From positions 35,560 through 99,559 of the forward strand of contig CAYLWN010000001.1 of assembly GCA_964387625.1 (NCBI GenBank): a stretch of 64,000 bases of DNA. The letters are read 5' to 3'. This stretch comes from an uncultured Gammaproteobacteria bacterium. Its GTDB lineage: Bacteria; Patescibacteriota; Microgenomatia; UBA10105. The notes below the pieces were generated by a model. The model had not been told where the DNA came from, did not search any database, and saw nothing but the letters and a program-made list of their open reading frames with translations. Both the position numbers and the translations under genes were made by a program. Positions 7,792 through 46,769 of this stretch are shown here, piece by piece (the first letter of the stretch is position 1; each line of letters starts with the position of its first letter).

Positions 7792-7793
7792 TC

Positions 7794-19657: not shown

Positions 19658-19660
19658 ATA

Positions 19661-21161: not shown

Positions 21162-21293
21162 AACAGCTATTTTTATACAGTCTTAGGTATAGGTAATTAT
21201 AAATTTTGGTTTATAAATTCTGAAGTTTTTAAAAACCAATAATTATATTAATAGTATTATCTACGGTGTTAATAATTTATATAAAAACATATT

Positions 21294-22301: not shown

Positions 22302-22584
22302 AATTCAACTTTCCCGAACAGAAATTTGTCTGCCTTTAAGATAGGATTTAATCCGTACTATATCATAGTCTTTTAAAAAAAACATTTTTAATAACATTTT
22401 TTACAGTTGTTTTTCTAGCCTTTTTTATAATCTAATTTTGTTTTGTTTCCCAATTTCAGAAGATATTAAGTACTCCAATAATCAAAATAAATAGATTCCT
22501 GGTTATTAAATAAAATACAACATTAACAACGAAGTTGTTGATTAATAAAATTAATTTAGAATTTTTAACGGCGTAAACAATTAA

Positions 22585-23895: not shown

Positions 23896-23904
23896 GAATT
23901 AATC

Positions 23905-25642: not shown

Positions 25643-25774
25643 ATTTTTCTGGTTATTAGTTAAATAACTAAAAAGTATATATTGAGTAAAAATTTATATA
25701 TTAAAATTAACTAATAAAAAAATAACTATTGTATAGAACTTGAGATTAGGCCTATTGTATGCTACATTCATACC

Positions 25775-26764: not shown

Positions 26765-28647
26765 ATACAACGGTAATACTCACCTCTTCTGATTCAGAAG
26801 TTAAATTTGCAATTTCATACCAAAAATCAAATGCTGATAAAAAAGTAATTATTTTAACACCAACTTTAACAGGACAAAAACTATTACGTAATTTAGGATT
26901 AAATTATTTTGATTATTTTAAATATGGTCACGTGAGCCATTCAGATTATTATCAAAAATATTTTTGGAATTTTGAAATTAAAGTAACTTATTTGGTACAA
27001 AAAGTTTTAAAAAATCTTGTAGCAAGATTTCCAGATTTTAAAAAATGGATTTTACCAAATCAGGATTGGTTAGAATTAGTTTATTTAGAAGTATTGGATA
27101 CTTATCAATACTGGCTTTCAATTAATAAATTATTACCCGGATCCCATTATTTGAAATTTTATTATCATAATAAAATACGTACTGACATATATTATCCCTA
27201 TCAAAGTCAAATGCAAATATTATCAATGTTCGTTCCCAAACATAGAATAACTATTATTGATAAACATAATTTTTTAGAAAAAATTATTAAAATATTTATA
27301 AATCTCTACATTTATATTCAGATTATTCCCAACTTATTGATTAATGTTAATACAATAATACACCGATTAATTACTAATTATTTAACTGATAAAAAATTAT
27401 ATAAAACAGATATTTTGATATATTCTGCAGGTAGAAATCTTCTTTATTATGAAAGTTTAATCAAATTACTAAATAAAGAAAAAATATACAAAGGAATTCA
27501 AATTCTTACTGGTTTTCAAACTATCGAAGATGAAGTTGTATTGAATAATACAGGTTTTAAATATATTTCTGCAAATAATGTTATTCCTAACGAATTTAAC
27601 AAGAAAAAGGATAATCTTAAAAAGAAGTTAATAAGTCGCCTTAAGAATATATATACCAGCTATGATTACTCAACCTGTTTAAGTGGTTTTCCAAAATTAG
27701 TTGAAGAAATTTTAATATCAAAGACAAAAGAAGTATTAATTACAAATATTTCAAAAATTATTTCTCAAACAGATATAGCTGAATATTCAATCAAGATGAT
27801 AAAACCACGACTATTGATTACAACTCACGATCCAGGTCCTACTGCATTGCCATTTGTGTTAGCGGCAAAAAAAATGAAAATAAAATCATTATTATTAATG
27901 CATGGATGGCAAAATACACTTATTGGGAATAGATATTATAGTGATTATATTGTTGTTTGGGGAAAATATATAGCTAAATGGTATAAAAAAAGATTAAGGT
28001 ATAATCCAAAAAAAATATTAGCAATAGGATATCCTGCTTTAGATAAATATTTTAAAAATAAGCAGGCTTTTTGGAAAAAAAGACAAATTCTTCCTACGTT
28101 CAAACAAAAAACCAATTTGGGATTGTTATTAACAATGTATTTACCAAACACAGCATTATTATCAAAATTTCTTACTGAACTATTTTGTGAATTAAGAAAC
28201 AATCACAATTTTATTATTAACATCAGACTTCATCCAGGGCAACCCTCTGATGGATTTAAAACACTGGCAAAAGAATTTGGTATAAACGCTAGATTTGGTC
28301 AATCTGTGACTCTTGATAATTTTATTAAAAATAATGATTTTTTGTTGGTTTGGGATACCACCGCAATTATTTGGTGTATGATTTATGGTAAACCATTGTT
28401 TTATTGTGCTCCCAATTGGGGTTTGGGTATAACGCCGATAAATAAATTTGGCGGAGCTTGGTTGGTTAATAGTCCTTCTGATTTATTGATTAAAATTGAA
28501 AATTATATAAAAAATCCAAAAATTATATATAAGTTACATAAAAAGCAAAAAATTTTTTTAAAAAATATAATGGGAATAATTGATGGATCTTCATCAAAAA
28601 GACATAAAAATTTAATTCTAAATTTACTAAAAAGATCTAAATATTAA
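26761..28647 (+). CDS. large hypothetical protein (628 aa), candidate GT-B-like glycosyltransferase; function unknown
   Basis: ATGA-coupled to pseB. No family recognised by eye. The C-terminal half contains 'IINIRLHPGQ', a possible HP motif like CMP-sugar-dependent GT-B enzymes and KpsC/KpsS-like transferases. Confidence 0.35.
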   Translation: MNTTVILTSSDSEVKFAISYQKSNADKKVIILTPTLTGQKLLRNLGLNYFDYFKYGHVSHSDYYQKYFWNFEIKVTYLVQKVLKNLVARFPDFKKWILPNQDWLELVYLEVLDTYQYWLSINKLLPGSHYLKFYYHNKIRTDIYYPYQSQMQILSMFVPKHRITIIDKHNFLEKIIKIFINLYIYIQIIPNLLINVNTIIHRLITNYLTDKKLYKTDILIYSAGRNLLYYESLIKLLNKEKIYKGIQILTGFQTIEDEVVLNNTGFKYISANNVIPNEFNKKKDNLKKKLISRLKNIYTSYDYSTCLSGFPKLVEEILISKTKEVLITNISKIISQTDIAEYSIKMIKPRLLITTHDPGPTALPFVLAAKKMKIKSLLLMHGWQNTLIGNRYYSDYIVVWGKYIAKWYKKRLRYNPKKILAIGYPALDKYFKNKQAFWKKRQILPTFKQKTNLGLLLTMYLPNTALLSKFLTELFCELRNNHNFIINIRLHPGQPSDGFKTLAKEFGINARFGQSVTLDNFIKNNDFLLVWDTTAIIWCMIYGKPLFYCAPNWGLGITPINKFGGAWLVNSPSDLLIKIENYIKNPKIIYKLHKKQKIFLKNIMGIIDGSSSKRHKNLILNLLKRSKY

Positions 28648-28701: not shown

Positions 28702-29937
28702 TTAAATAATCTTTATTTTGGGAACAGGAATGATGAATTTACCGCCATTTTTGCTGTATTTAACTTGTTTGTTTATAATTTCTTTTACAAAATTCCAGGC
28801 TAAAATTAACACATAATCTGGTTGACGGTTAATGATTTCTATTTCAGGATAAATAGGAATATGTGTGCCTGGAGTATAAAGACCTTGTTTATATGATGTT
28901 GAGTCTACTATGAAATCAATTAATTTATTATCAATTTTGCTGTAGTTTAATAATATGTTGCCCTTTGCTGCTGCGCCATATCCGGCAATTGTTTTTCCCT
29001 GTATTTTTAATTTTTTTAATGTTTTTTTTAGTAATTTACATAATTGTTTTACATTTTTTGCAAACTTAATATAAGTTTTTGCATCATACAAGCCAACTTT
29101 TATTTCTTGCTGAAACAGTTTATTTATTTGATTATTTATTTTATATACTGATGATTTTTTAGCTAAAAATATTCTTAAAGAACCTCCATCAATTGACGTG
29201 CGTTGAACATCAATAAGTTTAAGATTGGATCGTTTGATTAGATAAATTAATGGCTTAATTGAAAAGTATGATAGATGTTCATGGTAAATCGTATCGAATT
29301 GATTTTTCCGTATTAAGTCCAATAAATAAGGAAACTCACAGATAAAAACTCCATTATCTGATAATAATTGTTCCACAGAAAGCAATAAGTCTGGTAAATC
29401 ACTGATATGTGCTACCACATTGGTAGCTGTAATAATATCTGCTGAACCATATTTGGATTTAATTTTTTTGGACAACTTAATAGATATGTAATCGTTAATT
29501 GTTTCAATACCTTTAAGAACTGCAATTTTAGCTAAATTTTCAGCCGGATCAATGCCAAGTGTACGGTATCCCAATCCCTTAAAATATGAAAGCATGCTGC
29601 CATCATTGCTTCCAATGTCAATTATCAGAGAATTTGATTTTAATTTAAATTTTTTTTGAGCTTGTAAAGCTATAGTTTCAAAATTGTTCATTCTGGTTTT
29701 TGAAGATGATGGAATATAAACATAATTTTTAAACATTTCCTCCGGATTTACTATTTCCGTAAGTTGTACTAGACCGCAAATATTACAATAACCAGCAGTG
29801 AGTGGATAGAATTTTTCTGATTTTTTTAACTGTTCTTTGGTTAAAAAGCCATTTGGTAAAGGAATTGAGCCAAAAGCAAAAAATTTGGTTATTTTTCTAC
29901 TATTACAAATACGACATTTCGTAATTTTTTTAATCAT
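28702..29937 (-). CDS. NDP-hexose C-methyltransferase family protein (second TylCIII/TcaB9-like paralog)
   Basis: Same architecture as 11654..12892: CRIC...CNIC Zn ribbon, 'IIDIGSNDG', 'DTIYHEHLSY', 'AGYGAAAKGNILLNY', 'YTPGTHIPI'. About 50% identity to the first copy by eye. Confidence 0.6.
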   Translation of the reverse strand: MIKKITKCRICNSRKITKFFAFGSIPLPNGFLTKEQLKKSEKFYPLTAGYCNICGLVQLTEIVNPEEMFKNYVYIPSSSKTRMNNFETIALQAQKKFKLKSNSLIIDIGSNDGSMLSYFKGLGYRTLGIDPAENLAKIAVLKGIETINDYISIKLSKKIKSKYGSADIITATNVVAHISDLPDLLLSVEQLLSDNGVFICEFPYLLDLIRKNQFDTIYHEHLSYFSIKPLIYLIKRSNLKLIDVQRTSIDGGSLRIFLAKKSSVYKINNQINKLFQQEIKVGLYDAKTYIKFAKNVKQLCKLLKKTLKKLKIQGKTIAGYGAAAKGNILLNYSKIDNKLIDFIVDSTSYKQGLYTPGTHIPIYPEIEIINRQPDYVLILAWNFVKEIINKQVKYSKNGGKFIIPVPKIKII

Positions 29938-29975: not shown

Positions 29976-31523
29976 TTACAAGATTGAATATATATATAAT
30001 GTTTCTGAATTAGGACCAGTCATTTGTCCGAATTCATCAAATATTTTAAATAATTTATAATTTTCTAATATTACATTCATTATTTCATTTCTTTCAAAAT
30101 CATTTTTTCCAAAATAATATTTTGATTTATTGATTAATATAATAAATTTAATTTGTTTGTTAGCTATTATATTTTTTAACATTTCATGACTAGTTAAATG
30201 CCATTTTTCAGATTGGTATGAATCGATAATTGATATTGATCCCGGTCCTTCATTCATAGTTAATGGTACATTGCGGTTTATTGCAGCGACAACAGGCATA
30301 TGCATGGTTAGAATTAAATCGTTAGAATTACTATTATCTTCCAAATATGAAGATATTTTATGTAAAACAGAATGTGGGGTAACTAGCATATTACTTAATG
30401 ATATTTTTATAAATTTATGATGGGGGAAGATTGCATATGAGGTAAATATAAGTAAAACTATAAATATTACAAAATATTGCTTCATTTTTTTATTAGTAAA
30501 TTGTTTAACCGTAAAAAAGCCAGCTAAGAAAGAGAGAAATGGAATAGAAGGATAGATGTAAGATGAATCTGCGGGATGATGAATAACTCCTGTAACAAAA
30601 TAAGAAAGACAAATAAAAATAATTAATAAAATATATCCGGATTTCTCATTTTTTAAAAATATTTTTTTAAAATTAAAAAATATTCCAGTAATTATTAATG
30701 CTAAATAAATTCCATAATCACGGGCAGTTAGTGTAATAAAGCTTGTCAATTGTCCTAAGGTTATTGAGTCATTGTCATAAACATATAATAATAATTTATT
30801 AGCAAAAAAAGGCCAAAAAATTCCATATAAAGTATTTTCCCAGCTCAGTAAAAAGTATGGAGTATATATCAAAACTCCAAAGATAATAATAGCAAATGAA
30901 ATAATAAATTTAAATTTTGCAGCATAGTTTCTATAAATAATTAAGTAAAGCCAAACTAGAATTAATACAATCAGTGCTTGGGATCTTACTAAAACTGCAA
31001 GAACTGAAAAAAAGCATGCAATAATATCAAACATAAACCTTCTTTTTTTAAATGACTTAGTTAGCATAAATAAAGAAATGCTTGTAAAAAAAGTCGCATG
31101 TTGTTCAGAAAATGGTACATTAGAAAAATAAATGTATAGAGGGCATCCTAGACCGAGTAATAATGCGGTTAAAATGATTAAATTACGATTTCCAAAGTTA
31201 CTACAGATCTTGAGTATAATTACGAAAACAGATAATGCAATAATTAATCCATAAAACCGCTGCTGTAGTATTGAAGGAGAAAGGAAGAATGACGGTATTT
31301 GATTCAATAAATCGGTCAATAAGCTGTTCCATCCATTATAATTAATAAAAGGTATTAGTCCGGATCGTGCCAATTTACTGTTATATAATAAAATACCATC
31401 TTCGTTTCCAATATATCCATAGTAAATAGTAATTAATCTGAGTAAAATTGACATTAAAACAATGGAAAAAAGTAATAAATTCTTTTTGAAAATATTAAAT
31501 ATACTTCTGATCTTTTTATGCAT
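29976..31523 (-). CDS. GT-C-like polytopic membrane protein (ArnT/PMT-like candidate)
   Basis: 515 aa with many TM helices. The first loop carries 'GYIGNEDGILLYN', an acidic ED motif. C-terminal soluble domain. Confidence 0.4.
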   Translation of the reverse strand: MHKKIRSIFNIFKKNLLLFSIVLMSILLRLITIYYGYIGNEDGILLYNSKLARSGLIPFINYNGWNSLLTDLLNQIPSFFLSPSILQQRFYGLIIALSVFVIILKICSNFGNRNLIILTALLLGLGCPLYIYFSNVPFSEQHATFFTSISLFMLTKSFKKRRFMFDIIACFFSVLAVLVRSQALIVLILVWLYLIIYRNYAAKFKFIISFAIIIFGVLIYTPYFLLSWENTLYGIFWPFFANKLLLYVYDNDSITLGQLTSFITLTARDYGIYLALIITGIFFNFKKIFLKNEKSGYILLIIFICLSYFVTGVIHHPADSSYIYPSIPFLSFLAGFFTVKQFTNKKMKQYFVIFIVLLIFTSYAIFPHHKFIKISLSNMLVTPHSVLHKISSYLEDNSNSNDLILTMHMPVVAAINRNVPLTMNEGPGSISIIDSYQSEKWHLTSHEMLKNIIANKQIKFIILINKSKYYFGKNDFERNEIMNVILENYKLFKIFDEFGQMTGPNSETLYIYSIL

Positions 31524-35028: not shown

Positions 35029-36447
35029 ATGAAAGTGTATCCAATTATTTTATGTTTTTTATTATCACTTTTTGCCACTTTAATTATTCCTAGACAATAC
35101 GACTCAGAGGACATGGTTTTGCATCTACCTTTTATTAAAGTCATTAACGATAATTCCTTATATAAAAATGATTATTTAATATCTTCTAGTAATCCTCAAA
35201 ATAATATCACTATTTATTATCAAGTAATTGCAAAAATTGTTTCCATAACTAAACTGACATACGATGATTTATTTTCGATATTACGATATGTGTATTATTT
35301 TTTATGTTTCTATTTTTTTATAAAAATTTCACAATTGCTGTTTAATTCTTTGGATGTAGGATTTTTTATTGGCTTGTTAAGCTTGTTAAGAATCCCGGTT
35401 GGGGGAACAGCGATACAAATACTGGAAACTGAAGCATTGCCAAGAGCTTTAAGCGTTTCATTTGGTTTATGGATTTTATATAGTTTTTTTCACAAAAAAT
35501 ATTTTGTAGCAATTTTAATATTTATAATATCATTTTTAATACATCCCACATCAGCCTTTTTCTTTATTTCCATTTTATTTGTTTATCAATTATGTAAGTA
35601 TTTACATAAATTTAAAAAAATTAAAGTACCTTTAATAATGCTTTCTACATTAATATTAGCAATATTACTTATAGTAGTTAGTCCAATACGTCAAGACTGG
35701 TTAAACATTATTAGTTTAAGAAACAGTTATGCATTTTTAAATCTTTGGAATATTAATAATTTTATCTATTTAGTGATGTTAAATATACCGCTTTTTGTAA
35801 GCCTATTAATAAATGCAACTAAAAACCAAAAATTTCAAATTTTATCAAAAACTGTAATTTTAACTGCATTAATATTTACAGGCATACATGTCATATTTGT
35901 TGTAATAAAACCTGTATCTTTAATAATTAATCTGCAATTATTAAGAATTTGGATATTTCCGTCAATTTTATCTCTATTTGTGGTTTCGTATATTGTCATA
36001 AACAAATTTAATAAATTTCCAAAAATTTTAATTATGAGCATATTATTGGTTTTTATTATATGGAGGAATCTAGTATTACCATCGGTAAAAAGTAAGACTT
36101 CATGGATAGATATACAACAGTGGGTGGGTGGCAATAGTCAGCAAAATTGCGTTTTTTTGGTTCCTTTTTACAATTCCGGTTTTCGAGTTTATTCAAACAG
36201 ATCAATAATAGGAGAATATAAAGACGGAGCTTTGAGTTTTTATTCAAAAGAATTTGCATTGGATTGGAATAATCGGTTGCATGATTTAGGTTATTGGGAA
36301 ATTAATACTAACGATGAAATTATAAAATTACAATCTAAATATAAATTTGATTATTTAGTAAGCGGTACTTTTGTATCAAATAAATTTACTAGGGTTTACA
36401 AAAATAACGAATATAAAGTTTATCAAATTACTAAAGACTGTAATTAA
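35029..36447 (+). CDS. polytopic membrane protein (GT-C or Wzy/polymerase-like candidate)
   Basis: 472 aa, 12 or more TM helices. The first loop reads 'RQYDSEDMVLHLPF' and there is a C-terminal soluble tail. No family recognised. Confidence 0.35.
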   Translation: MKVYPIILCFLLSLFATLIIPRQYDSEDMVLHLPFIKVINDNSLYKNDYLISSSNPQNNITIYYQVIAKIVSITKLTYDDLFSILRYVYYFLCFYFFIKISQLLFNSLDVGFFIGLLSLLRIPVGGTAIQILETEALPRALSVSFGLWILYSFFHKKYFVAILIFIISFLIHPTSAFFFISILFVYQLCKYLHKFKKIKVPLIMLSTLILAILLIVVSPIRQDWLNIISLRNSYAFLNLWNINNFIYLVMLNIPLFVSLLINATKNQKFQILSKTVILTALIFTGIHVIFVVIKPVSLIINLQLLRIWIFPSILSLFVVSYIVINKFNKFPKILIMSILLVFIIWRNLVLPSVKSKTSWIDIQQWVGGNSQQNCVFLVPFYNSGFRVYSNRSIIGEYKDGALSFYSKEFALDWNNRLHDLGYWEINTNDEIIKLQSKYKFDYLVSGTFVSNKFTRVYKNNEYKVYQITKDCN

Positions 36448-37504: not shown

Positions 37505-39079
37505 TTAATTTGAAATAGATTTGGCAATTATTATATCTCGTTCATCTTTGATTAAATTACCTCTATTATAAGGGAATTCTTCAGGTAACCCGATTATCAA
37601 AGTGTTAGATTTTATTAAATCCTCATTTAAATTAATTTTTCTAAATTCATATTTACCAAAAGAAGCATATCCTATATAAGAATTACGTTTGGTATTTTGA
37701 GATGAGAAAATTACTGTTGGATTTTTCTCTCCATATAATAATATATAAATATATATTTGTTTTATGCTATCAGTAATAATTATTTGATCATATTTACTTT
37801 CTTGTGCTAGAGTATATTGAGCAATTTGTTTAGCTCCGTATTGCCATTGTTGTTTGAATCTTGTAATGCTGTCGTTAAAATAAGCATTAAGAAAATTAAT
37901 AAAACTTATTGTGTAAATTAAGGGAATAACTACTTTTAGTGACAATTTTGAATTATTTAAAGTAATTGATATTAAATGAGTAATACCAAATGCAGTTAAA
38001 AAATCTATTGTAGGAAATAACATAGCGATTCTACCGGCATTTGGAGGTCCTGAAGTTAATGCCCCTGGTAATACCGAAATTATAATCCATCCATAAATAA
38101 ATTTTCGAAATTTTGGAATAAAACTTATTCGATATAATCCAATTATGATAAAGGGAATACTTGTTAAATAAAATAATCCTGTTCCGCATACATTAAAATA
38201 TCTGGTATTACTGGTATCATAAAATAGAACAAAAGGATTAAATTGTTGTACATAATTTAGAATAAATTTAATAATGATATCAATTAATGAAAAATTTGAT
38301 GGATTAAGTCCGATAAATAAATTAATACCGGCAAATCGTGATTGGGAGAATGGTTTAGAAATAATATCTGTAATTAATGGAACTGAAATTAAGATAACAA
38401 TGATCAATGCGCATATAATTTGTTTTAAGGAGATAAATTTTCGAAATATCCAAAATAATAATATTATTAAGAGTGGGGTGGTTAGTCTAGGACTATGATA
38501 TGCGTATACGGATAGTGATAGTATTGAAATTGAAAGAATAAATAATAATTTTGATTTATTACGGATAAATTTAAAAAATAAAGTCAAACCGCATAACTGT
38601 AAAAATAAACCGTATGCAGCATCATGTACAATGCGTGACAGTTGAATGTGCCATGGAGAAATGGATATAAATAGTGTAGATAATAAAGCCAACATACTAA
38701 AAGAAAAATTTTGATTAAGTACTGACGATTTATTTTTAAGTAAAAAAGTTTTTATTAATTCTTTAATAAAAATATAAAATATTATTGTTGTGAATATGCC
38801 CACTAAAGCTGAAGGTAATCTGATGCTAAATTCGTTTAACCCAAATAATGCTATTGCAGGAATAGTTACATAAAAAATAATTGGAGTGACATCCGCTCTG
38901 AAAGAAATAGGAAACTTTTTATTATATTCATCAACTCCATATTTTAAGAGGGTATAAGCATTATACCCAACACCCACTTCATCGCCATGCAAGGAAATGG
39001 GAATTTTTCCAAGTTTAAAAAAAATTAAAAAAACTGTCAGAATAATAATTCCTGTTAAAATCCATATTTTAAACTTCAT
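37505..39079 (-). CDS. GT-C fold glycosyltransferase (ArnT/PMT, GT39/83-like)
   Basis: The N-terminus reads 'KLGKIPISLHGDEVGVGYNAY...' (DE motif in loop 1) and 'IRLPSALVGIFT' (ArnT-like). 524 aa. Confidence 0.6.
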   Translation of the reverse strand: MKFKIWILTGIIILTVFLIFFKLGKIPISLHGDEVGVGYNAYTLLKYGVDEYNKKFPISFRADVTPIIFYVTIPAIALFGLNEFSIRLPSALVGIFTTIIFYIFIKELIKTFLLKNKSSVLNQNFSFSMLALLSTLFISISPWHIQLSRIVHDAAYGLFLQLCGLTLFFKFIRNKSKLLFILSISILSLSVYAYHSPRLTTPLLIILLFWIFRKFISLKQIICALIIVILISVPLITDIISKPFSQSRFAGINLFIGLNPSNFSLIDIIIKFILNYVQQFNPFVLFYDTSNTRYFNVCGTGLFYLTSIPFIIIGLYRISFIPKFRKFIYGWIIISVLPGALTSGPPNAGRIAMLFPTIDFLTAFGITHLISITLNNSKLSLKVVIPLIYTISFINFLNAYFNDSITRFKQQWQYGAKQIAQYTLAQESKYDQIIITDSIKQIYIYILLYGEKNPTVIFSSQNTKRNSYIGYASFGKYEFRKINLNEDLIKSNTLIIGLPEEFPYNRGNLIKDERDIIIAKSISN

Positions 39080-39786
39080 ATTTTTGAAAAACGTAAATTA
39101 ATCACAGTTTTAGTATAGGTTACAAACATGTTAAAAAATTTAGATTTGCTTATTCCATAAGTACGGTTTTTATAAAATACTGGAGTTTCAGTAATTGAAT
39201 ATTTTTTTCTATATATAATATATATTAGACGAATAAAGTAGTCACCAAAACCAAAAAAAATTTTGTATAGCTCAAGTTTTTTCAGGATTGATCTTTTGGT
39301 GATAAAAAATCCGCTGAGATTGTCGCTTATATCATGATTTAGTAAAACACGAATATATAAATTAAAATAATAGCTAAACCATTGGCGGATTCTATTTTCC
39401 ATACCGCCGTTTTTTATATATCTTGACCCTATTACTAAATCAAATTTTTTTGACAACATAAACATTATAGGTATTTCTTTCGGGTTATGATTAAAATCAG
39501 TATCCATTACTAGAATATATTTTCCGCGAGAATGATTGATGCCATATAATATTGCACTGGCCAACCCTTTATTTTTTTTACGGATAAAAACTTTTACTGA
39601 GTGATTGTTTTTAAATTTATTTATTGTTTTTATACCTGTTAAATCCTGACTATCGTCATCCACCATGATGATTTCAGTAGAGATGTTATTTTTTTTGCAA
39701 ATAATAAGTATAGAATTTATAAGTTTTATTATGTTTCCGCTTTCATTGAACGTAGGTAAAATAATAGAAAGATTTTTTGATTTCAT
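39076..39786 (-). CDS. GT2 polyprenyl-phosphate sugar transferase (ArnC/DPM1-like)
   Basis: 'LSIILPTFNESGNI', 'MVDDDSQD', 'VMDTDFNHNP' (DxD), 'IGSRY'. Soluble, 236 aa. Confidence 0.6.
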   Translation of the reverse strand: MKSKNLSIILPTFNESGNIIKLINSILIICKKNNISTEIIMVDDDSQDLTGIKTINKFKNNHSVKVFIRKKNKGLASAILYGINHSRGKYILVMDTDFNHNPKEIPIMFMLSKKFDLVIGSRYIKNGGMENRIRQWFSYYFNLYIRVLLNHDISDNLSGFFITKRSILKKLELYKIFFGFGDYFIRLIYIIYRKKYSITETPVFYKNRTYGISKSKFFNMFVTYTKTVINLRFSKI

Positions 39787-39800
39787 AATATTAGAGGTTT

Positions 39801-40910
39801 TTATTCAGTTGATTTAGAATAAAATTTATTTATAATATGAGTTATATATTTTATTTGAGTGGTTTTAAGATCAATAAATGTGGGAAGATTAATTCCTTGT
39901 TGAAACAACATTTGAGATACAGGAAAATGTTTATTAGATTTATACATAGGAAATTTGGTAATCGGGTAAAAAAACGGTCTGGAATCGATGCTGTTTTGTT
40001 TTAAATATTTAATCAGAGAATTACGTTTAATTTTTCCTCCTGATTTTAGAAGACAGGAAAAAAGCCAACAAACAGATTGGATGTCTTTATTAATTGGTTG
40101 GAATTGAATATTTGGTATTTTTGTAAGTTCCTTACGATATTTTGTGCTTATTTCATTTCTTATTTTAATAAACTTATTCATTTTTTTAAGCTGTGCTATT
40201 CCAATTGCAGCTTGTATATTGGTCATTCGATAGTTATATCCGATAATAGGATGATAATATTTTTTTATCGGTGACATACCGTGATTTTTCAGCAATTTAA
40301 TTTTTTCAGCCAGTTGTTTACTATGTGTAATCAGCATTCCACCTTCACCGGTAGTAATTATTTTATTACCATAAAAACTAAAACAGCCTATATCACCAAA
40401 GGTACCTACATATTTATTGTAATATTTTGCCCCATGAGCCTCAGCAGCATCTTCTACAACATATAATTTATATTTTTTAGCCAAGGACATAATTGGATTC
40501 ATGTCAGCGGGGTATCCGTATAAATGTACCGGCATAATGGCTTTAGTTTTTTTTGTAATAGCTTTTTCAATAAGTTTAGGGTCGATATTCCATGTGTTGG
40601 GATCCACATCTATAAAAATGGGTTTTGCTCCCACATATTTAATAGCATTTGCTGTAGCAACAAATGTTAGAGCTGGTAGAATAACTTCATCACCGGGTCC
40701 TATATTTAAAGCCAAAAGAGCTAAATGAAGAGCGATAGTGCCATTGGAACAACTAATTGCATGTGGTATATGAAAGTACTTTGCGAATTCATTTTCAAAA
40801 GTGTTGATATATTTTCCCGCAGAAGAAATCCATGTACTTTTTATGCAAAAAGTTGCAAGTTTTAATTCTTCTTTTCCTAAACTGGGTTGGGCAACAGGAA
40901 TAAATTTCAT
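39801..40910 (-). CDS. DegT/ArnB/PglE-like PLP-dependent sugar aminotransferase
   Basis: 'IPVAQPSLGKEELK', 'SFYGNKIITTGEGG' with the PLP Lys, 'GYNYRMTNIQAAIG'. Confidence 0.7.
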   Translation of the reverse strand: MKFIPVAQPSLGKEELKLATFCIKSTWISSAGKYINTFENEFAKYFHIPHAISCSNGTIALHLALLALNIGPGDEVILPALTFVATANAIKYVGAKPIFIDVDPNTWNIDPKLIEKAITKKTKAIMPVHLYGYPADMNPIMSLAKKYKLYVVEDAAEAHGAKYYNKYVGTFGDIGCFSFYGNKIITTGEGGMLITHSKQLAEKIKLLKNHGMSPIKKYYHPIIGYNYRMTNIQAAIGIAQLKKMNKFIKIRNEISTKYRKELTKIPNIQFQPINKDIQSVCWLFSCLLKSGGKIKRNSLIKYLKQNSIDSRPFFYPITKFPMYKSNKHFPVSQMLFQQGINLPTFIDLKTTQIKYITHIINKFYSKSTE

Positions 40911-41503
40911 AGTTTCTTAATTTTTAATAAATTATAGCTATATTTGTTCCAAACACGATCATATATAGAAAACGATGCATAAAACTTACCACCGGTTGAT
41001 TTATAAAATTCATTTGCAGGAAAGTTTGATGATAACGTACCTACTTTTAAATGTTTAATATTTATATTAATAAGTTTTTTTTTCAGTTGTGATATTAATT
41101 TATTACCGATTCCCATGCGACGATGATGTTTATCGATTGCCAGAATTAATATTTCAGATGAAATTCCATCAGAGCAATTTCCATAGAAAATTGTTTGCCA
41201 AATATTTATTATAGTTTTTGGAGATATGATAATTTTTTTTAATATAAATGGTAAAAATTTCCAAAATCCTTCAACAAGAGCTTTTTTCATAGTTATTTTT
41301 GTATTGGTAGTTGCTAATATAAAACCAACTAATTCATTTTTGTCATAATATCCTAAATTTATGATCTCGGATTGATTTATTAATTGTGCATGTAAGTTTT
41401 TTAGAAATCTCAGCCCAAATCCGGGAAGAAAATCATTAGTCATTCCTTCATAATGAATCTTAGCAGAAGATATAAGATCACCTTGTTTTAAATTTTTTAT
41501 CAT
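40907..41503 (-). CDS. GNAT family N-acetyltransferase
   Basis: 'LAIDKHHRRMGIGNKLI' is acetyl-CoA-binding motif A (R/Q-x-x-G-x-G/A). Confidence 0.5.
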   Translation of the reverse strand: MIKNLKQGDLISSAKIHYEGMTNDFLPGFGLRFLKNLHAQLINQSEIINLGYYDKNELVGFILATTNTKITMKKALVEGFWKFLPFILKKIIISPKTIINIWQTIFYGNCSDGISSEILILAIDKHHRRMGIGNKLISQLKKKLININIKHLKVGTLSSNFPANEFYKSTGGKFYASFSIYDRVWNKYSYNLLKIKKL

Positions 41504-42456
41504 ATACGATTATTTTTATACCAATTAACAAATTTTTTTATTCCTTGACTAAATTTAGTTTTAGGTTTCCAGCTAATAATTTTTTTAGCTTTATCTATAT
41601 TAGCATAAGTTATTTTTGATTCCGCGCTTATTATTGGTTTATTTATGATAATTAATTTATTTTTAGTATATTTCTCTATATATAATATTAATTTATTTAA
41701 TGTAATAGGGTAAGAATTACCAATATTAAAAATATTAAAAGTCAAAGGTTTTTCAATGCATTTTATAATCGCCTGAACGATATCATCTATGTAGGTAAAA
41801 TCACGTGCAGAATTACCTGGTCCGTATTTAATTACTGGCTTATTGGAATAAGCTGCCTTTGTAAAGATATAAGGAGCCATATCTGGTCTACCATGAGGAC
41901 CATAAACTGAAAAAAATCTTAAAATAACGGTAGGTAGTTTATGTTTTTTATATAGTTTTATAATAATTTTTTCAGCAGTAAGTTTTGATTTAGCATACGG
42001 GGAATTAGGATGCAATTTGCCATTTTCTTTAAAAGGAATTTTAGATATATTTCCATATACACTGCTTGATGAAGAAAAGATAAATTTATTTATATGATTT
42101 TCTATAGATAATTTATATACATTTTTTGTACCATATATGTTGACGTATTCATACAATTTTGGATTGGTAATTGAATTTCTAACTCCAGTAAGAGCTGCTA
42201 AATGAATTACAACTTGGGGTTTATATTTTAGAAATACTTTTTTTAGCTCCAAATAATCGAGAATATCAATTTTTTTAAATTCAAAATTTGGATATTGAGA
42301 AAGAATTTTTAAATTATCTTTTTTGAGTTTTTGAGAATAATTATTGATTATATTATCTATGCCAATTACCAATTTGTATTTTTTGATTAATTCTTGAGAG
42401 GTATGATAACCAATAAATCCCAAAGCTCCGGTGATTAAGATAGTTTGTGGTTTCAT
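41500..42456 (-). CDS. NAD-dependent NDP-sugar epimerase/dehydratase (extended SDR, GalE-like)
   Basis: 'ILITGALGFIGYH', 'FSSSSSVYGN', 'PYAKSKLTAE' (YxxxK). Confidence 0.6.
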   Translation of the reverse strand: MKPQTILITGALGFIGYHTSQELIKKYKLVIGIDNIINNYSQKLKKDNLKILSQYPNFEFKKIDILDYLELKKVFLKYKPQVVIHLAALTGVRNSITNPKLYEYVNIYGTKNVYKLSIENHINKFIFSSSSSVYGNISKIPFKENGKLHPNSPYAKSKLTAEKIIIKLYKKHKLPTVILRFFSVYGPHGRPDMAPYIFTKAAYSNKPVIKYGPGNSARDFTYIDDIVQAIIKCIEKPLTFNIFNIGNSYPITLNKLILYIEKYTKNKLIIINKPIISAESKITYANIDKAKKIISWKPKTKFSQGIKKFVNWYKNNRI

Positions 42457-42554
42457 TTCTTATAGCAGTATGGGGCAAGTTTTAAAACTACAGCAATATA
42501 GATGTCCATGATTTTGTATAATATATCAATTACAACAACCTGTCTAATATTGCT

Positions 42555-43523
42555 ATGATAACTTTTTTTTCCATACCAAAATCAGATAAAAACAATTCTA
42601 ATATCATTCAAAAGAACTCAATCAATAGTTGGCTTAAATTAACAGATGATATTATTCTGTTTGAGGGAAAAAAGGAAATTAATAATTATCAAATCAGTGA
42701 TAATATAAAAATAATTTCTGGTATTAAAGAAAATAAGTATGGAACGCCTATTTTATCTGATGTCTTTAAAAAAGTGTACCAAAAAGCAAAATATCCAATT
42801 TTGGCATATGTAAATACAGATATAATATTATTTCCTGACTTTATCGATACAATAAAACAAATTTATTTTAAGAAATATCTATTGATTTCTAAAAGACAAA
42901 ATATTTTGTTAAAAAAACAAATATCTTTTCAAACTAATTATGTATCAAATTTGACTAAGACATTAAATCAACAAGGGAGAGAAGAACCTATTGGTAATTC
43001 TTCAGAGTTTTTTGTTTTCCCCAAAATCGTTAGGTTTCAAATGCCGAATTTTGCAGTGGGAAGATTATATTGGGACAGCTGGATAATTTATCGGGCCAAG
43101 CTATTAAGAGTTCCGATTATTGATGGGACCAAAACTATTCATTGTTTACATCAAATTCACGATTATGCTCATCATCCAAATGGTAAAGATGGAGTTTGGA
43201 ATGGACCGGAGGCAAATCTAAATTACAGGTTATCAGGTGGTGGAAAAACACGTTTTAAAGTAAATGATGCCGATTGGATAACTACGGAAAATGGAATAAT
43301 TAAGCCAAAAAATTCTATAAGAAGATATATTAGAACAATCAGGATAAAGGGAATAATTTACCCGAAATTAAATATTATTTTCTTTCCTTTATTTTTATTA
43401 TTGAATGTATGTTTTAAATTAATTATTTTAATGAAATTTTTATTATTTAAACGGGGTATTTTAAGTATAATTGATGCAATTAAACATCCGGAGGATATTG
43501 AGTATAAATTTAAAGAATTGTAA
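42555..43523 (+). CDS. hypothetical protein (soluble N-terminal domain and a C-terminal hydrophobic segment)
   Basis: 322 aa. No recognisable motif beyond a 'VNTDIILFPDF' DxD-like block. The C-terminal 'IIFFPLFLLLNVCFKLIILMKFLLF' segment is hydrophobic. Confidence 0.3.
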   Translation: MITFFSIPKSDKNNSNIIQKNSINSWLKLTDDIILFEGKKEINNYQISDNIKIISGIKENKYGTPILSDVFKKVYQKAKYPILAYVNTDIILFPDFIDTIKQIYFKKYLLISKRQNILLKKQISFQTNYVSNLTKTLNQQGREEPIGNSSEFFVFPKIVRFQMPNFAVGRLYWDSWIIYRAKLLRVPIIDGTKTIHCLHQIHDYAHHPNGKDGVWNGPEANLNYRLSGGGKTRFKVNDADWITTENGIIKPKNSIRRYIRTIRIKGIIYPKLNIIFFPLFLLLNVCFKLIILMKFLLFKRGILSIIDAIKHPEDIEYKFKEL

Positions 43524-43526
43524 TTT

Positions 43527-44543
43527 TTATCTTTCGGTGAGCCGGTGTTCAACAGTTTCTCGGACGATATTTCTATCATGAGTAGTAAAGTACCACTCAA
43601 TAGTTTTGTGTAAACCATTAAAAAATTTTACTTTCGGTTTCCAGCCTAGTAATTTATAAGCTAAAGAATTATCAGCGACACGATTTAAAGGCCCAATCGG
43701 CATATTTGGTTTAAATTTTATACGGGGATGAAATTTAGTATATTTACATATTTCCTGCACAGCATCGATAACTTTTATCCTTTCCATGGTTCCTAAATTT
43801 ACTGCCGTACCATCATGGAGTTTTTCAGCTGCCAAAATTGTGCCTTTGACAATATCGCCAACATATGTCCAATTACGTATCTGTTCGCCGTTGCCCCATA
43901 TTTCAAATGGATCTTGTTTGATAAAAGCTTTGGCGATCATGGCTATAACAGCATGATTTTCTAACCCACGTTCACCATAAACTGTAAAGTAACGGCAGGA
44001 AGCAGTTTTGATTCCCCATTCATGATAAAACGCTTTCAATGTCAACTCTCCCATAAGTTTCGCCCAACCGTACATATTGTCTGCATCAAATGGAGGTTTA
44101 ACTAAGTTTTCTTTTAAATAAAGATTTTTTTTAGGATTGGTTTGCAAAAAATTTGGGTAAACACAACCTGAAGAAGCAAAAACGATTTTTTCCACTCCTT
44201 GTTTTATAGCAGTTAAAAACACTGCTCCATCCAAAGTTAAATTGGTGCTGCAAGCTGCTTGATGTAAGTCTACATAACCTCGACCACCATGATCGCATGC
44301 TAAATGAAAGACGACATCAATATTGGAACACGCTTTTTTTGTTACAGCTGAATTCATTAAATCAGCCTGAATAAATTCTATGGCAGAATTTTTTATATGG
44401 CTTTTTAAATTATCTTTTTTTCCGGAGATTAAATTATCAACTACCCGAACCTTTGCTCCTAGTTTCACTAACGCATCGACCAAGTGAGAGCCAATAAAAG
44501 ATGCACCTCCTGTTATCAAGATACGGGTTTTTTTCCAGTTCAT
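43527..44543 (-). CDS. NAD-dependent NDP-sugar epimerase/dehydratase (extended SDR)
   Basis: 'ILITGGASFIGSHLV', 'FASSGCVYP', 'YGWAKLMGE' (YxxxK). ATGA-coupled to the upstream Ugd-like gene, which suggests a uronate 4-epimerase or related function. Confidence 0.55.
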   Translation of the reverse strand: MNWKKTRILITGGASFIGSHLVDALVKLGAKVRVVDNLISGKKDNLKSHIKNSAIEFIQADLMNSAVTKKACSNIDVVFHLACDHGGRGYVDLHQAACSTNLTLDGAVFLTAIKQGVEKIVFASSGCVYPNFLQTNPKKNLYLKENLVKPPFDADNMYGWAKLMGELTLKAFYHEWGIKTASCRYFTVYGERGLENHAVIAMIAKAFIKQDPFEIWGNGEQIRNWTYVGDIVKGTILAAEKLHDGTAVNLGTMERIKVIDAVQEICKYTKFHPRIKFKPNMPIGPLNRVADNSLAYKLLGWKPKVKFFNGLHKTIEWYFTTHDRNIVRETVEHRLTER

Positions 44544-45862
44544 ATTTTATTTAAACCGATTCCAATAGGATAATATTTTATATTATTGATGATATCAACA
44601 GATTTAATAATTCTCCAGCAATCAATAAGTATTGGTTTTCTTTTTTTATTTATTTGAATACTGTTTATTTCTTTAAAAGGAAGTGTTATTACAGATAAAG
44701 GATGATTGTCAATGCATTCCTTTATTGAATTAACATATTTTACTCTATTTCCAAATATTTTTTTAGCATTGTTTTCTGCTTGCGGATCATAAATAGTGAC
44801 GGGCCGTTTGTTTTTTATAAGTAATTGAGCTAATTTTAAACCAAGAGATTCATCAATAACATCAGTATTATTCCTATAAGCTATTCCTATAATTGCGATT
44901 TTATCTTTTGGTTTAACTTTTGAAATTATCAAATTATATATTCTTCTAAATTGATGTGAATTTATTTTGTCAGTAGCATAAGCTAAGGATATTTTTGTTT
45001 TGTAACGATTACCGGTATAAATTAATGCTTTATTATCTCGGGGAAAACAGGGACCACCATAACTTGGACCTCCTTTTAAATACTTATTTCCAATCCGTGA
45101 ATCATTGCCTAAGGCATGTGTTATGGTATCGATATTTGCTCCGGGAATTTTTTCACACAGTTCAGAAAGCATATTTGCATATGATATTTTAGTTGTGATA
45201 AATGTATTTAGGGCAATTTTTGTAATTTCTGCATTAACATGATTCATGGTGATAATTTTAGGATTATTTAAACAAATTTTATTATAAAAATTTGACATTA
45301 TTTTTGAGCTTTTTAAATCAGAAGAGCCAATTAATACGAAGTCGGGATTTAAAAAGTTACTGATTACATTTCCTAATGCTACAAAAGAAGGATTGTAGCA
45401 GATGCCAAAATCTTTACCGGATATCTTTCCCGAAGTTTTTTCTATAATTGGTAAAATGTCTTTTTGTAATGATCCAGGCATAACAGTGCTAACAATTGCA
45501 ACTACATGAAATTCTTTTTTTTGTTTAAGTGAAGCCCCTATTTTTTTTAATGCTGAAATTACAAAACTATTTGTGAAACCACCGCCTGGTAAACTAGGTG
45601 TGGGCACGATTATAAACGAGATGGATGATTTAATTATTGCGTCATTATAATCTAATGTTGCATGGATATTTTTTTTATATTTAATTAAATAATCTTTATA
45701 TAAGGGTTCATTTATGTGTGCTTTGCCTTGATTTACTGATTTTATATTATCATTATTTATATCGACACCTATAATTTTAAATCCTTGTTTGGCACAAGCT
45801 GCAGCGATTGGTGCACCAAGTTTACCTAAACCAAAAATTGATATTGTAGATTTTAAATACAT
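44540..45862 (-). CDS. UDP-glucose/UDP-GlcNAc 6-dehydrogenase family (Ugd/TviB/WecC-like)
   Basis: 'ISIFGLGKLGAPIAAACAKQGFKIIGVDIN' is the N-terminal NAD-binding domain. 'GGPCFPRD' carries the catalytic Cys, matching the GG.C.PKD signature. Confidence 0.65.
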   Translation of the reverse strand: MYLKSTISIFGLGKLGAPIAAACAKQGFKIIGVDINNDNIKSVNQGKAHINEPLYKDYLIKYKKNIHATLDYNDAIIKSSISFIIVPTPSLPGGGFTNSFVISALKKIGASLKQKKEFHVVAIVSTVMPGSLQKDILPIIEKTSGKISGKDFGICYNPSFVALGNVISNFLNPDFVLIGSSDLKSSKIMSNFYNKICLNNPKIITMNHVNAEITKIALNTFITTKISYANMLSELCEKIPGANIDTITHALGNDSRIGNKYLKGGPSYGGPCFPRDNKALIYTGNRYKTKISLAYATDKINSHQFRRIYNLIISKVKPKDKIAIIGIAYRNNTDVIDESLGLKLAQLLIKNKRPVTIYDPQAENNAKKIFGNRVKYVNSIKECIDNHPLSVITLPFKEINSIQINKKRKPILIDCWRIIKSVDIINNIKYYPIGIGLNKI

Positions 45863-45938
45863 TGTAAATTAATTGAAATCTATTAATACATTTTAAGATA
45901 ATACCATATTGTTATAACAATAACTTTAAAAGTTTTTT

Positions 45939-46769
45939 CTAATTTAATGGTATTGCTTTAATTAAAATATGCCAACCAAAATTTTTTTCTAACCATTTAA
46001 AAATTGATTTCGGAATTATTGTCCAATACCAAGTTTTTTGATAAATGTATTTACGGTATTTGTTAATGTTGTATGGAAAAATATGATCAATCCATATATT
46101 CGTGATACGAAAACCTTTTAATAATTCTTTTGCTTGCGGTATTGTATATACATAACTAACAGGAGATCCAATTGCTGCTTCTGAATATTTGCTTATAAGT
46201 TCATTTATCCTCCAGAATGCAGCATTTCCATATTTTAAAATAATCCAGAAAACCTTCCATGAATATTTATGATAAAGCATTATCCGAAGTTCAGTTTTTG
46301 GATACGTATACTTTTTTAATTCTTTTATCACGTTTTTTGGATTAGGCGTGTGATGTATAACTCCAAAAGAATAAATTAAATCATAGGGTTTTATTGGAAC
46401 TGTCTTAGACAGTTGTTCTGCGTTAGCGTGATAGAATTTTATTCTTTTTGTAAGAACAAATATTTGAGAACGTTTTTTGGCAATAGAAATTGATGATTTT
46501 GAAACATCGACCGCAGTTACAAAAGCTCCCGCTCTTGCAAAATTTATCGTATCAGTTCCAATTCCACAACCAATTTCTAATACTTCTTTATTTTTCCATT
46601 TTGCAAACTGAGTAAATTGTGGAATATGCGGTTCAACAAAATATTTCCTTTTTTCTATTTCATTGAAATATTTTTTTGTACCAAATATTGATTTTGAGTG
46701 TTTGATATTACAAGGATGTTTATTCCAAAACTTAGATACAATATTTATAGAAACTGTTTTATAGTTCAT
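45939..46769 (-). CDS. class I SAM-dependent methyltransferase
   Basis: 'VLEIGCGIGTDTINFARAGAFVTAVDVS' is motif I. Confidence 0.55.
   Translation of the reverse strand: MNYKTVSINIVSKFWNKHPCNIKHSKSIFGTKKYFNEIEKRKYFVEPHIPQFTQFAKWKNKEVLEIGCGIGTDTINFARAGAFVTAVDVSKSSISIAKKRSQIFVLTKRIKFYHANAEQLSKTVPIKPYDLIYSFGVIHHTPNPKNVIKELKKYTYPKTELRIMLYHKYSWKVFWIILKYGNAAFWRINELISKYSEAAIGSPVSYVYTIPQAKELLKGFRITNIWIDHIFPYNINKYRKYIYQKTWYWTIIPKSIFKWLEKNFGWHILIKAIPLN

Follow-up and report, generated by a model that had tools for sequence, protein, structure and literature searches.

A putative lipid-carrier glycosylation module of Arn-type logic in a glycan-biosynthesis island of a Microgenomates bacterium

Several bacterial systems load a sugar onto polyprenyl phosphate and pass it on outside the membrane by means of a glycosyltransferase of the GT-C fold. 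The best known is the Arn pathway of Enterobacteria (PmrHFIJKLM together with Ugd), which places 4-amino-4-deoxy-L-arabinose (L-Ara4N) on lipid A. In Francisella (FlmF2/NaxD/FlmK) and Bordetella (LgmA/B/C), an ArnC-like glycosyltransferase of family 2 (GT2) makes polyprenyl-phosphate-N-acetyl-hexosamine, which an ArnT-like GT-C enzyme transfers to lipid A, and deacetylation of the lipid-linked sugar results in a cationic amine on lipid A. In the three-component systems, such as GtrA/B/C, CsbB-GtcA-YfhO, GacI/J/L and the GT136 pentofuranose systems, a GT2 or other synthase makes the polyprenyl-phosphate-sugar and a GT-C enzyme decorates the finished polymer outside the membrane (PMC11127046, PMC7389260). 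Furthermore, PpgS (Rv3631), Rv3632 and Rv3779 of Mycobacterium tuberculosis are responsible for galactosamine on arabinogalactan, with PpgS using UDP-GalNAc and being helped by the small membrane protein Rv3632 (PMC3485146). Here we describe a five-gene operon that appears to belong among these systems. It lies in a stretch of 64,000 nucleotides, hereafter the window (contig CAYLWN010000001.1 of assembly GCA_964387625.1, forward-strand positions 35,560 to 99,559), which is deposited as an uncultured Gammaproteobacteria bacterium and placed by GTDB in the Microgenomatia (Patescibacteriota, UBA10105). All positions below are those of the window.

Our favoured interpretation, held with slightly better than even confidence, is that the operon is a lipid-carrier module of the three-component or Arn type for the extracytoplasmic glycosylation of an acceptor with an N-acetylated amino sugar. 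A preliminary description of the window had called it an Arn-like module; the architecture, the membrane steps and the coupling of GT2 to GT-C hold up, while the sugar chemistry proposed there was overconfident and incomplete. The five genes are the following:

41500 to 42456, minus strand: SDR1, an extended short-chain dehydrogenase/reductase (SDR) of the UDP-glucuronate 4-epimerase (GAE) type and the first gene of the operon, assigned from Pfam, solved relatives and residues
40907 to 41503, minus strand: GNAT, an N-acyltransferase presumed to N-acetylate the amino sugar, assigned from Pfam Acetyltransf_1
39801 to 40910, minus strand: DegT, an aminotransferase of the DegT family, dependent on pyridoxal 5'-phosphate (PLP) and similar to perosamine synthase and LegC, assigned from Pfam DegT and the catalytic Lys
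39076 to 39786, minus strand: GT2, a soluble protein similar to DPM1 and dolichol-phosphate mannose synthase (DPMS), predicted to be a polyprenyl-phosphate sugar synthase, assigned from Pfam GT2 and the structure 5mlz
37505 to 39079, minus strand: GT-C, of the PMT_2/ArnT-like superfamily, with a predicted C-terminal extracytoplasmic alpha/beta domain, assigned from AlphaFold and Foldseek

A check of the open reading frames (ORFs) of the window returned exactly the coordinates and strand given earlier for all five genes. The 4-nt overlaps that were said to join them are found at three of the four junctions, as ATGA at SDR1/GNAT, GNAT/DegT and GT2/GT-C, and not at DegT/GT2, where there is a 14-nt gap. 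Pfam recognises Epimerase in SDR1 (7.5e-53), Acetyltransf_1 in GNAT (1.2e-9), DegT in the aminotransferase (1.2e-126) and the GT2 family in the fourth protein (4.2e-28). The match of GT-C to PMT_2 (PF13231) is sub-threshold (E 0.0024, 18.5 bits vs a threshold of 26.1), and precomputed PF13231 and/or PF02366 hits are present in the majority of homologues that share 30-50% identity with it.

The assignment of GT2 as a soluble polyprenyl-phosphate sugar synthase instead of a processive one is well supported by homology, since the protein of 236 aa presents no hydrophobic or transmembrane segment and keeps the polyprenyl-phosphate site of DPMS. Among solved structures it comes nearest to the catalytic domain of Pyrococcus furiosus DPMS (PfDPMS; 5mlz, 2.4e-27), followed by ArnC (about 1e-14) and then GtrB. 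In PfDPMS, Arg117, Arg131 and Ser135 position dolichol-phosphate, the A-loop contributes Arg202 and Lys208, and Asp89, His94 and Lys178 contact mannose (PMC5526996). Mapping of these published residues through a HMMER alignment shows that the dolichol-phosphate site is kept in GT2 as R122, R134 and S138, and the A-loop as R208 and K214. The DXD motif reads D95-T-D97-F-N-H100, compared with 89-DADLQH-94 in PfDPMS (Gln93 being replaced by Asn), and Lys178, which contacts mannose O4/O6 and the phosphoester, is not clearly conserved, as it falls in an ambiguous stretch with a 6-residue insertion. These features agree with the earlier account of a soluble DPM1/ArnC-like enzyme, and there is no sign of a processive, membrane-integrated protein. 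The label ArnC-like is apt for the type of synthase, but DPMS is the nearer relative (99 bits vs 58 bits for ArnC), and the NCBIfam ArnC equivalog model reaches 64.7 bits against a cut-off of 529. GT2 is the sole DPM1-like protein in the window.

With regard to GT-C, the prediction of a GT-C-fold transferase whose catalytic-loop Asp lies outside the membrane is well supported by fold and motif. A sequence search against the PDB gave no meaningful match, and a fold prediction was therefore needed. The AlphaFold (AF2) model, built on a 119-sequence alignment, has a pLDDT of 95.2 and a pTM of 0.94, and Foldseek matched it exclusively to GT-C enzymes, all with probability 1.0, namely STT3, ArnT, AglB, PglB, ALG12 and Pmt4, which include the ArnT, PMT and AglB types that had been put forward for this comparison. 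The score against ArnT (5ezm/5f15) is a TMq of 0.54 with probability 1.0, and STT3 scores equally well. The loop-1 DE motif noted earlier corresponds to D33-E34, directly after the first transmembrane helix; among the 119 aligned sequences D33 is invariant and E34 is present in at least 90%, so that the first-loop acidic residues are conserved, and R87, R149, R248 and R350 are also invariant. The protein is identical to UR52_C0001G0055 of Candidatus Gottesmanbacteria GW2011_GWA1, a member of the candidate phyla radiation (CPR)/Patescibacteria, and the window itself is Candidatus Gottesmanbacteria.

The conservation of the operon was assessed on contigs with close orthologues, collected one by one. 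Orthology was assigned by score, close GT-C orthologues being 43-50% identical, and 12 distinct loci were counted; L-numbers denote the related loci on independent metagenomic contigs. The gene arrangements, followed by those at more distant GT2 relatives (L088 and L089) and on L090, are as follows:

Window: SDR1-GNAT-DegT-GT2-GT-C
L081, L085, L091, L094 and L095: SDR1-DegT-GNAT-GT2-GT-C
L093: the five functions, with GNAT and GT2 fused in one protein of 435 aa (L093:6697-8004)
L086: GNAT::GT2 fusion of 428 aa (L086:4378-5664), with GT-C 4 kb downstream
L087: GNAT absent
L084 and L092: flanks as in L091, with a methyltransferase in place of DegT
L082 and L083: the GT2-GT-C pair only, with DegT-GNAT 9 kb off
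L080: GT-C alone
L088: GT2 (50% identical) followed by GNAT, with DegT and PMT_2 GT-Cs nearby
L089: bare GT2-GT-C pair (GT2 51% identical) in a housekeeping context with no sugar genes
L090: short contig with GNAT beside GT2

This gene-neighbourhood comparison, which had been suggested as a check, places GT2 next to or overlapping the orthologous GT-C in 10 of the 12 distinct loci; seven of the 12 (the window, L081, L085, L091, L093, L094 and L095) have the five functions in one contiguous run. SDR1 and GNAT are each associated with the pair in 10 of the 12. GNAT is adjacent to GT2 in L081, L084/L092, L085, L088, L090, L091, L094 and L095. The SDR1 orthologues score 298-364 bits in nine related loci, and those of the operon DegT 450-545 bits in eight. 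On these comparative grounds, the five-gene arrangement is not a product of chance, because the orthologues recur as a cassette with gene-order permutations and fusions in independent contigs; by the same comparison, GT2-GT-C is the conserved core, GNAT is repeatedly tied to GT2 and the other tailoring genes are modular. A 7-sequence alignment of GNAT was too divergent for a pattern scan, and a 3-sequence version led to only three metagenome loci.

The two GNAT::GT2 fusions come from different metagenomic lineages, and in them a short linker replaces GT2's own start. In a separate case, the comparison of L091 with L092/L084 (at about 6900-8000) shows a 367-aa DegT replaced by a 245-aa gene of the Methyltransf_21 (FkbM) type, as though one sugar-tailoring step had been cleanly exchanged as a cassette.

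A profile scan of GTDB species-representative genomes with GT-C was uninformative on the conservation of the module because it returned only paralogues at about 30% identity. These paralogues occur in tandem arrays, often with a DPM1-like GT2 a few kb off and never with DegT or GNAT. In the Microgenomates/Patescibacteria genomes concerned (L001-L079), the arrays comprise two to five genes on the same strand with few-nt spacing, a striking expansion in very small genomes. Several of the array-bearing metagenome-assembled genomes are labelled 'uncultured Gammaproteobacteria', which looks like mislabelling.

The same data could reflect the co-transcription of two unrelated units, with a DPM1/PMT-like pair of GT2 and GT-C using polyprenyl-phosphate mannose (or glucose) on a protein or glycan, and SDR1, DegT and GNAT supplying the cytoplasmic GT4 and GT2 enzymes of the island. 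GT2 is indeed nearest to bona fide DPMS, with the acceptor-site and mannose-contact residues kept, and its homologues are often annotated as dolichol-phosphate mannosyltransferase. Moreover, the pair stands bare in L089 and lies 9 kb from DegT-GNAT in L082/L083, the distant GT-C arrays have a DPM1-like GT2 nearby and neither DegT nor GNAT, and DegT or GNAT can be lost. Nevertheless, two unrelated units would be difficult to reconcile with the GNAT::GT2 fusion proteins of two loci, with a GNAT-GT2 adjacency that survives changes in gene order, or with five functions that are contiguous in seven loci with overlapping stops and starts. The mannose O4/O6 contact K178 of DPMS, which is not clearly conserved, also argues against a mannose donor, and we consider this explanation unlikely, if still a serious one.

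The supply of the sugar is where the module departs from the earlier account; SDR1 presents the signatures of a UDP-glucuronate 4-epimerase and not those of a dehydratase or decarboxylase. Its best solved relative is 5u4q (6.8e-58, 199.6 bits, 38.5% identity), and it aligns with UGAepi (6zl6), the 4-epimerase of Bacillus cereus for UDP-glucuronic acid, at 7.4e-45, 156.8 bits and 36% identity. The residues S125-S128, Y149, K153, S178, R185 and R88 (UGAepi numbering) are kept in SDR1 and in four aligned orthologues, which accounts for the catalytic Ser/Thr126-Tyr149-Lys153 and the carboxylate grip Ser127/Ser128/Thr178, with T126 and T178 changed to Ser. Arg185, which sits in a GPxGRPDMA motif of SDR1 and is kept in the four aligned orthologues, anchors the carboxylate of UDP-galacturonic acid (UDP-GalA) in UGAepi, where mutational loss of the anchoring produces a primitive decarboxylase (PMC12338863). 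By these residues, SDR1 very probably binds a UDP-hexuronic acid. The motif SSSSSVYG lacks the Thr-x-Glu of UDP-xylose synthase (UXS) and ArnA, and the NCBIfam ArnA model gives 34 bits against a cut-off of 777. The Asp/Glu pair of 4,6-dehydratases is also absent, which rules out SDR1 as a 4,6-dehydratase.

Genes outside the operon that bear on this question, together with the gap that separates it from the upstream genes, are the following:

44540 to 45862, minus strand: Ugd, of the UDP-glucose 6-dehydrogenase type, assigned from TIGR03026
43527 to 44543, minus strand: SDR2, an extended SDR of the epimerase type (GalE / GDP-sugar 4-epimerase / GME-like), assigned from solved relatives
42555 to 43523, plus strand: orf322, a predicted glycosyltransferase of the GT-A fold with a C-terminal membrane anchor, assigned from AF2 and Foldseek
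42457 to 42554, no strand: intergenic region of 98 nt that separates SDR1 from the divergent orf322, with no other sizeable gap upstream of the operon
53408 to 54604, minus strand: DegT398, an ArnB-like aminotransferase and apparently a displaced member of the cassette, assigned from its ArnB relatives and from orthologues that overlap SDR1

Ugd is the probable source of UDP-uronic acid for SDR1. It scores 295.8 bits against the NDP-sugar dehydrogenase model TIGR03026 (cut-off 189.8) and 271 bits as AglM-like, and it lies two genes upstream of the module, a position that is kept in L085 and L087. SDR2 overlaps Ugd by 4 nt and has 4zrm, 6dnt, 8rdg, GDP-mannose 3,5-epimerase (GME) and UXS as its best solved relatives. 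Its motif, ASSGCVYP...YGWAK, has no decarboxylase Glu, which rules out SDR2 as UXS, and the Cys of ASSGCVYP stands at what we take to be the position of the GME catalytic Cys. GalE, GDP-sugar 4-epimerase and GME are relatives of SDR2 (PMC12171764). Its conservation extends far beyond that of any neighbour gene, with 579 and 658 bits over 338 aa in L085 and L087. The product of orf322 has no Pfam or NCBIfam match, and its 58 homologues are all unnamed or annotated as 'hypothetical protein'; the exact full-length protein was not found in the protein collection, where only a 229-aa fragment is found. The AF2 model (pLDDT 92) is matched by Foldseek to the GT-A enzymes WrtF, GalNAc-T, K4CP, SpsA and TarP, and there is a transmembrane-like segment at residues 271-299. 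The predicted fold makes orf322 a candidate for an unclassified glycosyltransferase family and rules it out as a flippase or deacylase. In L085 and L087 it occupies the same place, divergent and wedged between SDR2 and SDR1.

In the RgtE/RgtA-D system of Rhizobium, polyprenyl-phosphate-GalA is made and GalA is transferred outside the membrane. A similar route would have Ugd produce UDP-glucuronic acid, SDR1 epimerise it to UDP-GalA, GT2 make polyprenyl-phosphate-GalA and GT-C transfer the GalA, with DegT and GNAT serving another sugar. The complete set of UGAepi residues in SDR1 fits such a route, as do the position of Ugd upstream in three loci and the constancy of SDR1, which is, jointly with GNAT, the tailoring gene most often beside the pair (10 of 12 loci each). 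However, such a route finds no use for DegT, DegT398 or GNAT, even though these genes sit interleaved between SDR1 and GT2, overlap the two and, in two loci, are fused to GT2, and it strikes us as improbable. An explanation that dispenses with the lipid carrier, in which GT2 is a GT-A enzyme of the ordinary kind that elongates glycans and the GT-C-like protein acts as a polymerase or ligase or has a structural role in the membrane, can draw on the fact that GT-C of the window falls under the Pfam PMT_2 cut-off and has no sequence-level PDB match, yet the DPMS polyprenyl-phosphate residues kept in GT2, the confident GT-C fold with its invariant catalytic-loop Asp and the conserved pairing of the two make it highly improbable.

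The aminotransferase of the operon is close to several families and falls under the cut-offs of two of them, with 390.8 bits for LegC (cut-off 420), 314 for PseC and 253 for ArnB (cut-off 631). Its best solved relative is the GDP-perosamine synthase 3bn1 (1.1e-101), and it carries the motif SFYGNKIITTGEGG with the catalytic Lys present. DegT398 also has the catalytic lysine; ArnB structures take the first four places among its solved relatives (1mdo, 3.6e-81), and ArnB is likewise its best NCBIfam match (359 bits, under the cut-off of 631). Located 11 kb from the operon and adjoining ABC-2 exporter genes, DegT398 is 71-74% identical to a 398-aa DegT that overlaps the SDR1 start by ATGA in L081, L093, L094 and L095, and its orthologue in L086 is found upstream of SDR1 after a gap. 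In the cassettes of L081, L093, L094 and L095, SDR1 is the only SDR that could feed this ArnB-like DegT. By this comparison, the usual cassette starts with a second, ArnB-like DegT, which is displaced in the window, so that the module is not self-contained. DegT398 lies 11 kb away and Ugd two genes upstream, and no counterpart of ArnD, ArnE/F or GtrA accompanies the operon.

With regard to acylation, GNAT shows a weak match to WecD, the dTDP-fucosamine acetyltransferase. No formyltransferase is found in the module, and a formyltransferase-like gene exists elsewhere (21294-22301) in the nonulosonate cluster; the proposal that a GNAT replaces the formylation by ArnA remains a reasonable analogy. 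Two other assignments of these enzymes were considered and set aside. DegT and GNAT do not appear to be the PseC/PseH of the island's nonulosonate pathway, and are not needed for pseudaminic acid, because that pathway has its own PseB, PseC and GNAT. A GDP-N-acetylperosamine donor would suit a perosamine-synthase-like DegT and a DPMS-like GT2, but it is unsupported, and no gene for a GDP-mannose 4,6-dehydratase turned up in the window.

A further DegT-family protein of 437-441 aa recurs just downstream of GT-C, often after an RmlD-like reductase (L081:12510-13823, L082:12519-13844, L087:10271-11584, L094:10433-11749 and L095:9599-10912). In the L081 copy, the only one checked, the lysine motif S-x-x-x-K...GEGG was not found, and the protein may be a PLP-dependent dehydratase instead of an aminotransferase. 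No orthologue of it was seen in the window.

Taking these elements together, the most coherent pathway would lead from Ugd through C4 oxidation by SDR1, transamination and the action of GNAT to GT2 and GT-C. Cytoplasmic enzymes would first build a nucleotide-activated N-acetyl amino sugar, with SDR1 acting as C4 oxidase on the UDP-hexuronic acid from Ugd, the operon DegT and/or DegT398 aminating the 4-keto intermediate, and GNAT acetylating the amine, which would make it impossible to reverse a transamination that is itself unfavourable, the part played by formylation in the Arn pathway. At the membrane's inner face, the DPMS-like GT2 would then take the sugar off its nucleotide and load it onto polyprenyl phosphate. 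The lipid-linked sugar would be flipped across the membrane, a step for which there is no candidate gene in the operon, and GT-C, with Asp33/Glu34 in its first outside loop, would pass it to an acceptor outside the membrane. Our best guess for the sugar, and the weakest link of the proposal, is a 4-acetamido-4-deoxy sugar derived from UDP-glucuronate, which would be a pentose if SDR1 decarboxylates and a hexuronate if it does not. Since no deacylase is encoded, and no deacetylase- or deformylase-like ORF is found in or beside the operon, the sugar would stay N-acetylated. As acceptor, a glycopolymer of the cell surface or the glycan of a glycoprotein is most likely, because the island contains ABC-2 and Wzx exporters, many glycosyltransferases and about 10 GT-C-like proteins.

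Several observations weigh against this pathway. By every sequence criterion SDR1 appears to be a true 4-epimerase, expected to epimerise without releasing a 4-keto product, and since Arg185 is kept, homology points to no operon enzyme that would release a keto-sugar; the pathway hence requires SDR1 to behave unlike its characterised relatives. In addition, the pathway gives no reason for two aminotransferases beside this single SDR. Ugd, SDR2 and orf322 may form a separate uronic-acid-adding unit, which makes Ugd weaker as direct evidence for the module, and the true destination of the Ugd/SDR2 products could be orf322, with its GT-A fold. GT2 retains Asp89 and His94, which in DPMS contact mannose O2/O3, and this would be compatible with a plain mannose donor. 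Across the related loci, GNAT is missing from L087, a methyltransferase takes the place of DegT in L084/L092, and the pair of L089 has no sugar genes around it; as DegT and GNAT are individually dispensable in some loci, the sugar would vary and is assigned here only provisionally. Lastly, the operon and its surroundings (37505-46000) contain no flippase ORF of the GtrA, SMR (small multidrug resistance), MATE or Wzx type, no small SMR-like membrane ORF was found, and a Wzx-like gene (8965-10215) is unlinked to the module.

A bolder version of the proposal, which we offer tentatively and with clearly less confidence than the lipid-carrier module itself, is that an SDR of the UDP-glucuronate 4-epimerase family has been recruited as a C4 oxidase (with or without decarboxylation) to feed an ArnB-like aminotransferase. 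This would amount to a convergent, ArnA-independent 'Arn pathway' without lipid A, in which a polyprenyl-phosphate carrier would deliver a 4-acetamido-4-deoxy sugar (pentose or hexuronate) or, in view of the two aminotransferases, a diamino sugar to a surface polymer, an S-layer protein or a pilin, the soluble synthase being anchored via its GT-C partner and not by membrane helices of its own. In the literature, we found nothing on the pairing of a uronate 4-epimerase with an aminotransferase, on UDP-4-keto-pentose with an acetyltransferase or on the PDB entry 7B0M, and no account of a comparable module for CPR bacteria. In a preprint of 2024 on the pili of Saccharibacteria, the glycosylation processes of these bacteria are described as unexplored (PMC11623550).

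The 98-nt gap between SDR1 and orf322 is likely to be the promoter region of the five-gene operon. A sigma-70-like match, a weak indication, is found on its minus strand (42546-42518, 10/12 positions), in a region that is not enriched over shuffles in promoter-like matches; likewise, the matches of the promoter and terminator scan were not enriched over shuffles in this AT-rich DNA. The GC content is about 27% throughout the window, and no tRNA genes are found in its 64 kb.

The whole 64 kb is a single glycan-biosynthesis island. It contains GT4 and GT2 enzymes, a Wzx-like flippase, an ABC-2 Wzm/Wzt pair, a CDP-glucose pathway, two sugar C-methyltransferases, a UDP-galactopyranose mutase and about 10 polytopic membrane proteins, several of them without a Pfam match. 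Eight large polytopic proteins have 6-13 hydrophobic segments and no Pfam match or only a DUF (DUF6798, DUF6044), and several present an acidic motif soon after the first helix, in the fashion of GT-C enzymes. Their positions are:

14170 to 15822
26761 to 28647
29976 to 31523
35029 to 36447
54666 to 56723
56767 to 57972
57969 to 59138
59191 to 60855

Most related loci keep a pair of GT4 and DUF6798 genes beside the module, and in several of these loci the pair is accompanied by another GT4-like gene, a membrane protein of 607-633 aa and PseB. At 15886-26764 there is a complete pathway for a nonulosonate of the pseudaminic acid type, with PseC (488 bits) and PseB (452 bits) both over their NCBIfam cut-offs, a GNAT (17000-17491), NeuB/PseI, a cytidylyltransferase, a Gfo/Idh/MocA oxidoreductase, a class-III aminotransferase and the formyltransferase-like gene mentioned above. 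The same cluster encodes a WbuX N-acetyl-sugar amidotransferase with HisH/HisF-like subunits, which suggests an acetamidino group. An SDR of the UXS/ArnA type (12941-14008; SSSEIYGDP...ACYDESKR) is found 30 kb from the module, beside a cupin/FdtA-like protein and a sugar C-methyltransferase (11274-14008); together with a second C-methyltransferase (28702-29937), these genes suggest a branched or C-methylated sugar pathway. At 48-913 (plus strand), the edge of the window truncates a GT2 gene, and the gene after it, which overlaps it, encodes a small DUF2304 membrane protein; the two may be another pair of a synthase and a small membrane partner.

There is no experimental knowledge of the surface glycans of Microgenomates or other CPR bacteria, whose cells attach to or depend on other cells and whose surface chemistry is central to their biology. 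With five to six enzymes, soluble or membrane-bound, the module is a small and conserved set on which a lipid-carrier glycosylation route in this group can be put to the test. It raises the question of whether an epimerase-type SDR can supply a keto-sugar to an ArnB-like transaminase; should this be the case, Arn-type logic would be confined neither to lipid A nor to ArnA. For defining the donor sugar, the GNAT::GT2 fusions provide a natural handle.

In comparison with the known systems, the module follows the logic and order of the Arn pathway, from Ugd and an SDR acting on a UDP-uronic acid through DegT and N-acylation to loading by GT2 and transfer by GT-C. Among the aminotransferases, it is DegT398 whose closest solved relatives are ArnB. 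Unlike Arn, the module has an SDR of the epimerase type instead of the ArnA/UXS decarboxylase type, acylates by a GNAT instead of a formyltransferase, uses a GT2 that lacks the C-terminal transmembrane helices of the UDP-Ara4FN-specific ArnC and is nearer to DPMS, has a second aminotransferase, and contains neither the ArnD deacylase nor the ArnE/F flippase. By these sequence comparisons it is not a strict member of the Arn pathway, as the ArnA decarboxylase, the formyltransferase, ArnD and ArnE/F are absent or replaced, orthology with ArnC was not found and both aminotransferases stay under the cut-off for ArnB. Moreover, CPR bacteria, to our knowledge, lack lipid A, and the acceptor must therefore differ from that of Arn. 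The hexosamine systems of Francisella and Bordetella differ in that the module encodes no deacetylase.

The DPM1-PMT systems (Ppm1-Pmt in Actinobacteria) provide the best sequence match of GT2, with the acceptor-phosphate residues kept, and GT-C homologues carry PMT/PMT_2. However, GT2 of the module stands among genes for amino-sugar tailoring and is in some cases fused with them, the Lys178 contact is not clearly kept, and GT-C lacks the MIR domains of eukaryotic PMTs. With the three-component systems, the module shares the pair of synthase and GT-C and the clustering within a glycan locus; it differs from them in having no dedicated flippase gene, in its soluble synthase and in bringing its own nucleotide-sugar tailoring genes, with the acyltransferase fused to the synthase in some loci. 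Compared with the PpgS system, the module seems to use a sugar made to order, and it encodes no small membrane partner. Nearly the whole of GT2 is covered by the NCBIfam PpgS model (36.5 bits, well under the cut-off), and the module would share with PpgS the route from a short soluble GT2 through a polyprenyl-phosphate-N-acetylhexosamine and a GT-C enzyme to, in the PpgS case, a cell-wall polysaccharide of a bacterium free of lipopolysaccharide (LPS). For a soluble synthase that would serve a GT-C enzyme in a cell without LPS, the PpgS system is the nearest functional analogue.

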